Notes: a model not told the origin generated them from the sequence alone. DNA of 9,120 nt from Escherichia coli (GCF_003334335.1 NZ_QOWQ01000067.1), one strand, 5' to 3'. Numbered from the stretch's first letter, positions 2,953-3,704 are shown. Numbers and translations: made by a program.

Positions 2953-3291
2953 GTGCTGTACGTACCTGTCCGGGATGCAGCTGATGCTCGGGTTGCCAGA
3001 CAGTGGAAGTATGAACTTGGGCAATTCCATGAGTACGCTAAAGGACTAGTTGAGGGGCTGTTAGATGGTAATGTTGAGATCCTTCATCTTGAGGATGAGT
3101 TATCTGCCGTTATCTATCATATTTCTCAACCCGAAATATTGCCTGTAACGATGCCACTGGGCTTTATCACAACGAACAAAGAAACGGTTAAGATTATTGG
3201 TACTCTGGTTACTGAATATATCAAAGGCACCACTGGTTTTGATAAGTTTCATGACTGTGGCGCAATTTCGGCAATGATTAAGAAAGGTTGA
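2953..3291 (+). CDS. Hypothetical ORF; possibly the C-terminal continuation of 1855..2871 interrupted by an in-frame TGA
   Basis: Same frame as 1855..2871. The 27 codons straight after the TGA (2869-2871) are stop-free and run into this ORF, giving ~140 open codons in AT-rich DNA. There is no ATG and no convincing SD near the GTG at 2953. Protein-like composition. Confidence 0.35.
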
Positions 3292-3350
3292 GCTGTTGGA
3301 ACAGGAGGTATGGGGCATGTTTGCGTATTTTTATGGAAAGAAATAACCCA

Positions 3351-3704
3351 ATGACGGCGTTACTCTCCAACTGGGTTGACGCGTGCTGCCTGTTAATGGC
3401 TCCGCTGAATGATGCCCTATACCGTTATGTGATGAACACCCGCCTGGGAACCATCCACGGCACGTCGGTCGGCGAACTGCTGGCGTGGATCAAAGAAGAT
3501 GAAAACCCTCGCAAAGGCGAGATGGTGCTGATTATTGAAGGCCATAAAGCCCAGGATGACGAACTGCCCGCCGATGCGCTGCGTACGCTGGCGCTGTTGT
3601 AGGCTGAGCTGCCGTTGAAGCAAGCGGCGGCGTTGGCGGCAGAAATCCACGGAGTGAAGAAGAATGCGTTGTATAAGTATGCGCTGGAACAGCAGGGGGA
3701 ATAA
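3351..3704 (+). pseudogene. rsmI: 3' remnant of 16S rRNA 2'-O-ribose methyltransferase RsmI gene; 5' two-thirds absent, internal TAG
   Basis: Translation from ~3438 ([50 protein letters not shown]) then, in frame past TAG 3600-3602, [33 protein letters not shown] ending at TAA 3702-3704. This matches my recollection of the E. coli RsmI C-terminus. No N-terminal methylase-domain sequence is found upstream in any frame. The 5' boundary of homology (3351-3440) is uncertain. Confidence 0.55.

Follow-up and report, generated by a model that had tools for sequence, protein, structure and literature searches.

The stretch of Escherichia coli DNA analyzed here, called the window, is 9,120 nucleotides long (GCF_003334335.1 NZ_QOWQ01000067.1), and it begins inside a mobile element. 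Positions 1..77 are the 77-bp end of an IS100 copy (IS21 family), a multicopy sequence found at up to 26 places per genome, which adjoins istA in other records and here interrupts mkoA. This insertion occurs in none of the best complete E. coli matches listed, where homology to mkoA begins after the IS end. The 3' part of mkoA (78..1858, plus strand), a Mokosh type I helicase gene whose 5' side was cut by IS100, is followed by mkoB (1855..3291, plus strand), in which a TGG codon has become TGA at 2869-2871 when compared with the related locus L001. The two upstream genes of L001 match the Mokosh type I anti-phage system, with MkoA at full length (PDLC03921, 2206 bits, an intact protein of 1652 aa) and MkoB (PDLC03923, 503 bits). 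The “helicase segment” that the initial annotation placed upstream of rsmI is, to judge from these matches, a Mokosh type I MkoA/MkoB defense module. Its lower G+C content is borne out, at 0.39-0.47 upstream against 0.54-0.59 across window 3300-3750. In an intact system the two genes are adjacent and unbroken, whereas here mkoA is cut and mkoB carries a nonsense change, so that Mokosh would have been inactivated twice in this strain (the IS100 cut and the mkoB TGA). We regard the module as neighboring cargo without a functional link to the rsmI relic that lies beyond it.

The 3' flank of the Mokosh module is a 65-bp spacer (3292..3356) confined to the Mokosh-carrying variant of the island, as homology to the Mokosh-less loci L002 and L003 begins exactly at 3357. 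There starts an 87-bp piece from inside an IS66-family tnpC gene (3357..3443, plus strand), cut at both ends, in frame with the rsmI relic and also marked by PGAP as a pseudogene fragment. It is 92-94% identical to tnpC of the ISEc23, ISEc43 and ISEc47 types and aligns at about nt 660-746 of an annotated 1537-nt tnpC, thus being internal on both sides; the Mokosh-less variant retains 117 bp. Elements of these types occupy thousands of chromosomal and plasmid places, and it is because the piece belongs to such widespread elements that the initial search with the window returned multicopy matches. A complete IS66 element has tnpA, tnpB and tnpC, terminal inverted repeats and an 8-bp target duplication. 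The window holds mid-tnpC sequence alone, without tnpA, tnpB, terminal inverted repeat or target-site duplication, and is therefore a relic rather than an element. The piece was also considered as an element end marking an insertion site, which was ruled out since it maps to the middle of tnpC.

The two junctions lie at 3356/3357 and 3443/3444, where the initial annotation had bracketed the breakpoint between ~3290 and ~3440. Its failure to find an att or target-site repeat still holds: a search of window 2900-3900 for direct repeats, target-site duplications or att-like repeats at the junctions gave only chance-level repeats of at most 19 nt. At the tnpC/rsmI junction a single C is shared, the IS66 homology stopping and the rsmI homology starting at 3443. 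Since the tnpC piece is internal and just 1 bp is common to the two sides, the junction would not come from transposition, and it points to a scar of deletion or illegitimate recombination rather than to an insertion site.

The rsmI sequence itself (3444..3704, plus strand) is recognized by alignment, by Pfam and by PGAP as a 3' relic, codons 201-286 of 286, and the gene from which it derives is most probably foreign (xenologous). When aligned to native E. coli rsmI (locus L004, 861 nt, between lpoA and yraK), homology spans only window 3443/3444-3701, which corresponds to native nt 602-861, at 87% identity. The earlier view that only the 3' portion is present thus stands, but its size is 86 of 286 codons instead of ~90-110, and the first 155 bases assigned to it (3288-3442) are not rsmI. 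The relic ends with one additional GAA codon before the TAA at 3702-3704, giving the terminus ...QQGE-TAA found in Enterobacter and Lelliottia orthologues. Two lesions break it. A 1-nt deletion lies at 3450/3451 relative to all orthologues in the alignment, and codon Gln254 has changed from CAG to TAG at 3600..3602 (plus strand), within the helix-turn-helix (HTH) domain RsmI_C, according to translation, alignment and Pfam. This position is CAG in E. coli rsmI and in every orthologue examined. Frame 1 of window 3288-3704 reads 104 codons, the TAG at 3600-3602, 33 further codons and the TAA at 3702-3704; translation and alignment to Gln254 thus confirm the in-frame amber codon and the rsmI-like codons continuing past it, both noticed at the outset.

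In the read-through translation, Pfam finds solely RsmI_C (PF23016, 46 residues, E = 1e-18), with the TAG inside the domain. The methyltransferase domain, TP_methylase, is not found in this translation, codons 1-200 being missing. A functional rsmI would be an open reading frame of about 286 codons with a tetrapyrrole-methylase-type catalytic domain, unbroken and divergent from lpoA. None of these features is present here: the upstream neighbors of the relic are the IS66 piece and mkoB, while lpoA adjoins the native copy and the intact orthologues of other genera. Compared with RsmI (YraL), the 16S rRNA C1402 2'-O-methyltransferase, the last 86 codons are homologous and the RsmI_C HTH is recognizable, but codons 1-200 are missing, Gln254 is an amber codon, 1 nt is deleted, and the sequence is an extra copy located in an island. 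Lacking the methyltransferase domain, the relic would be without function. PGAP/RefSeq labels it a pseudogene (“internal stop; missing N-terminus”), and as an object it is already known, being a RefSeq pseudogene in hundreds of E. coli genomes. Literature searches for earlier descriptions of this relic or of the ycdT-adjacent island returned nothing specific.

To the right of the relic, the genes run on the opposite strand. The intergenic stretch between rsmI' and its convergent neighbor (3705..3770) contains a GC-rich palindromic segment and is 85-91% identical to Enterobacter loci over 32-48 nt. It is homologous to the Enterobacter intergenic region and not to the DNA downstream of E. coli rsmI, and its predicted fold is no more stable than those of shuffled sequences (z = -0.38). 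It leads to a gene of 637 codons (3771..5684, minus strand) that RefSeq calls “enterotoxin” or “alpha-galactosidase”, and which a signal peptide and fold comparison mark as a putative secreted GH36-like glycosidase. Next come a gene for a MalY/PatB-family C-S lyase (5674..6852, minus strand; TIGR04350, 363.7 bits), 84-92% identical in amino acids to its Enterobacter and Yokenella counterparts and in the same order there, and a malX-like PTS IIBC gene (6861..8432, minus strand, PGAP coordinates from L001; TIGR02004, 689.8 bits), 92-97% identical in amino acids in Enterobacter and Yokenella. Upstream of malX, the T run at window 8418 has nine residues (T9), against eight (T8) in L001. The last open reading frame (8547..8951, minus strand) fuses the N-terminus of KbaZ to the C-terminus of KbaY, its residues 23-49 corresponding to KbaZ 1-27 and its residues 41-128 to KbaY 197-284. 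Since these two pieces are ~7 kb apart in Enterobacter-group loci, the fusion reads as what a deletion of roughly 7 kb would leave after removing the interior of a second aga operon.

The GH36-like protein has no sequence match in Pfam, NCBIfam, PADLOC, PHROGs or the PDB. Homologues at 30-47% identity are found in Verrucomicrobiota, Planctomycetota and Gemmatimonadota. Enzymes of the GH36 family and of clan GH-D have an N-terminal beta domain, a catalytic TIM barrel and a C-terminal beta domain. In a Foldseek comparison of the AlphaFold model (pLDDT 89.9), the top matches are the GH36 alpha-galactosaminidase of Flavonifractor plautii, which is the best, and alpha-galactosidases. The probability of these matches to GH36 enzymes is 1.00, but TM values reach just 0.41-0.63, with identities of 10-14%. 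On the strength of this model, the protein is probably a secreted glycosidase of the alpha-GalNAc/GalN type, and the fold comparison suggests that the “enterotoxin” label is a misnomer. An alpha-galactosaminidase-like fold fits the conserved place of the gene beside the GalNAc/GalN (aga) genes: it is a native neighbor of rsmI in other genera, and over 30 enterobacterial species have it placed with the aga genes on one side and rsmI on the other.

This conserved arrangement was traced by scanning one genome per bacterial species for exact peptide words from the 637-aa protein, a design by which a closer donor may have escaped. In about 33 species, a full-length rsmI convergent with the orthologue of the GH36-like gene lies ~60-1000 bp beyond it, and lpoA comes next; the genera are Enterobacter, Lelliottia, Kosakonia, Yokenella, Raoultella, Klebsiella, Pluralibacter and Buttiauxella. 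Upstream of the GH36-like gene, these genera carry kbaY, the aga operon and agaR, and several species also have malX-malY there. The order kbaY, malX, malY, GH36-like gene and convergent rsmI is complete in seven loci (L007, L008, L017, L019, L023, L043 and L047), and complete with an additional gap between malY and the GH36-like gene in an eighth (L029); about 25 further species have the same order without malX-malY. From 3444 to its right end, the window follows this order, homologous intergenic DNA included, as expected of a xenologous block. Its likeness to the aga-rsmI-lpoA region of Enterobacter, Lelliottia, Kosakonia, Raoultella and Klebsiella extends to the orientation of the genes, from kbaY to the convergent rsmI. 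The differences are that the block is cut within rsmI, has no lpoA, has lost the aga interior, and sits in an E. coli island.

Compared with the nearest Enterobacter-type loci, the segments (rsmI', intergenic, GH36-like gene, malY, malX and kbaY') are each mostly 84-87% identical. The rsmI relic is 81-85% identical in nucleotides to rsmI of the Enterobacter group. Both the sequence that follows rsmI and the terminal ...GE-TAA are Enterobacter-like, unlike E. coli, where yraK comes next. The closest rsmI is nevertheless that of E. coli itself (86.5%), against at most 85.3% at the nucleotide level for the Enterobacter group. The scan of one genome per species found no block closer than the Enterobacter group, with at most 92% amino-acid identity for the GH36-like protein and 85.3% nucleotide identity for rsmI. 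Two metagenome-assembled genomes (MAGs), labeled Collinsella sp. and Lachnospiraceae bacterium (L006 and L067), contain 100% matches to the block; these E. coli-like contigs are probably binning contaminants. Over 83 codons, a number that makes the estimates weak, the relic differs from orthologues with dS 0.57-1.0 and dN/dS 0.06-0.10. From E. coli rsmI it differs by 24 synonymous and 9 non-synonymous changes (dS 0.57, 83 codons). The divergence is mostly synonymous, and therefore accrued while this rsmI was functional in another lineage. After that phase, the relic shows only a modest excess of amino-acid changes, a weak signal over 83 codons.

The same relic is found in two variants of one island. 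In the first, represented by ~296-300 complete genomes, Mokosh has an inovirus-Gp2-type gene on one side and the IS66 relic on the other. In the second, represented by ~192 genomes including Nissle 1917, only 100 bp stand in place of Mokosh. The variants differ by 5.7% over 3.6 kb, yet they show no difference at the tnpC/rsmI junction, in the 1-nt deletion or at the TAG, and their rsmI' sequences are separated by 1 synonymous and 3 non-synonymous differences. As the junction and the TAG are common to the two variants, truncation and nonsense change predate the variant split and are not due to Mokosh. Between the variants (window 3771-5684 against L002 9332-11221), the GH36-like gene is 91.8% identical, while rsmI' and malY are at 97-98%; this suggests that recombination or separate acquisitions may have occurred within the block.

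On its left, the island carries genes for a tyrosine integrase, an HTH protein, a YfjI-family protein and Gp2. Beyond these lies dgcT in MS15046 and P4. In strain 503025 the place of dgcT is taken by phoH and a DUF2726 gene, which border the island. In the same strain (NZ_CP025892.1, L068 4721-5038), two tandem “RtT sRNA” annotations stand directly upstream of the integrase. No tRNA was found near the integrase in L001, L002 or L068, nor an att repeat in the loci examined. Rightwards, the MS15046 island continues with an aryl-polyene-type cluster, genes for microcins H47 and M, and F1C fimbrial genes. Genomic island I, located at serX in Nissle 1917, CFT073 and ABU83972, is described as bearing the microcin cluster (PMC7472721). 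By gene content, the island described here fits genomic island I/PAI-serX (PMC7472721), and the exact junction is found in Nissle 1917, in its Mokosh-less variant. The window differs from it in belonging to the other variant, with a decayed Mokosh, and in that 503025 has this variant beside phoH and an integrase, not dgcT.

In the initial annotation, the locus was read as the resident rsmI of lpoA-rsmI interrupted by a mobile island that includes the low-GC helicase segment, with the 5' half of the gene displaced beyond the window or deleted. A gene reduced to its 3' part and a drop of G+C upstream of it are what such an insertion would leave, and the observation of a truncated rsmI abutting mobile-element DNA remains valid. 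The insertion itself is nonetheless extremely unlikely. Of 5426 complete E. coli genomes, 5425 contain a match to the rsmI part of the window (265 nt); for 4912 records it is the annotated native rsmI that matches best, with 80-90% identity (84.6-86.5% among the matches listed). The native gene is intact between its flanks lpoA and yraK in these 5425 genomes, fragment carriers included. The fragment itself (at least 95% identity) occurs in 516 records as a second genomic place, as in NZ_CP025892.1, which has two, and it is 13-15% diverged from the native rsmI (85-87% identical). The displaced 5' half is not to be found either: across 5425 records, 5427 occurrences of the initial 601 nt of native rsmI were counted, essentially one copy per genome. 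Furthermore, the locus adjoins dgcT or phoH rather than lpoA, and the helicase module proposed as the cause is absent from the ~192 genomes that have the identical IS66'/rsmI' junction and TAG. From these comparisons, the fragment is a second copy, distinct from the resident gene at lpoA-rsmI, where the working RsmI of the cell would be encoded, as an intact second rsmI is seen in related genomes. The alternative that the initial annotation allowed for itself, a full-length rsmI elsewhere together with a segment not derived from rsmI, turns out to be half right: carrier genomes have the intact gene, yet the segment truly derives from rsmI. The copy might instead have come from within the genome, the 3' end of E. 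coli's own rsmI being duplicated into the island and then diverging. E. coli rsmI is nominally the closest sequence (86.5-87%), but a pseudogene copy would not show mainly synonymous divergence (24 against 9, dS 0.57), the native locus, with its yraK, has neither the intergenic DNA nor the next four genes in their Enterobacter-type order, and the terminal ...GE-TAA is of the Enterobacter/Lelliottia type. Such a duplication is very improbable.

Another possibility is that the locus produces something. The mechanical 104-codon ORF obtained by translation (3288..3602, plus strand) joins the spacer, the TnpC piece and the RsmI piece, and either it or a product of amber readthrough could be an expressed small protein under selection, for example a regulator or interferer made of the RsmI C-terminal HTH. 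The frame is open for 104 codons with the TnpC and RsmI pieces in phase, the junction and TAG are kept across diverged island variants, and RsmI_C is still recognized at E = 1e-18. On the other side, the TAG ends the ORF after 14 of the 46 RsmI_C positions, and the TTG start overlaps the mkoB stop and exists only in the Mokosh variant. In window 3200-3900, a scan found nothing resembling a promoter, and the single terminator-like site, on the minus strand, is at chance level; in the entire window, no Rfam family reaches its gathering score. The variants differ by 3 non-synonymous changes against 1 synonymous, and common descent explains the conservation. Nothing marks this ORF as a gene, and an expressed product is very unlikely. 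A further-reaching proposal, that the IS66'-rsmI' chimera is transcribed by read-through from the cargo to give a small TnpC-RsmI_C peptide or an RNA affecting RsmI or ribosome maturation, is scarcely probable; its modest version would treat the chimera as a datable scar, by which island I/PAI-serX captured aga-rsmI core chromosome from an unsampled enterobacterial lineage via an IS66-associated event. As for a sequencing or assembly error behind the TAG or the junction, its chance is vanishingly small, since ~300 independent complete genomes are identical over 3200-3800 and both features recur in the 98.1%-identical variant, in ~190 further genomes. The TAG called in the initial annotation is thus real.

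The reading we retain, and hold to be very probably correct, is that window 3444-3704 is the non-functional relic of a second, horizontally acquired rsmI, and forms the edge at which a foreign enterobacterial chromosome segment, now in an integrase-associated island, was cut. Starting from the identities of the pieces, their junctions, the collinearity, the second intact rsmI of related genomes and the shared lesions, a history can be proposed in which the order of events, the part played by IS66 and the donor lineage are reconstructed. A segment with the Enterobacter-type aga-rsmI order would have entered the E. coli island. Its lpoA-proximal end would have been cut inside rsmI, at codon 201, and a deletion or an illegitimate recombination, with 1 bp shared, would have brought this edge up against internal sequence of an IS66 tnpC. 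The IS66 copy would later have been almost wholly lost, leaving 117 bp, or 87 bp in the variant that received Mokosh. Decay of the relic would have followed, with CAG turned into TAG at Gln254, the 1-nt deletion and a few extra amino-acid changes, and the block would additionally have lost the interior of its aga operon. Mokosh mkoA-mkoB would be variable cargo that arrived later, in the space separating the Gp2-type gene from the IS66 relic. This order is read from scars, and IS66 might have inserted before or after the transfer, or might merely be an unrelated neighbor.

Taken alone, the relic matters little, as it is ordinary gene debris and not a disrupted housekeeping gene. For annotation it calls for caution: when part of an island matches a housekeeping gene, the gene itself is not necessarily disrupted. 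Its value is that of a marker, indicating that part of a well-studied E. coli island would be the decayed aga-rsmI region of another enterobacterial lineage. The junction, common to diverged variants, offers a fixed reference point for the history of the island.
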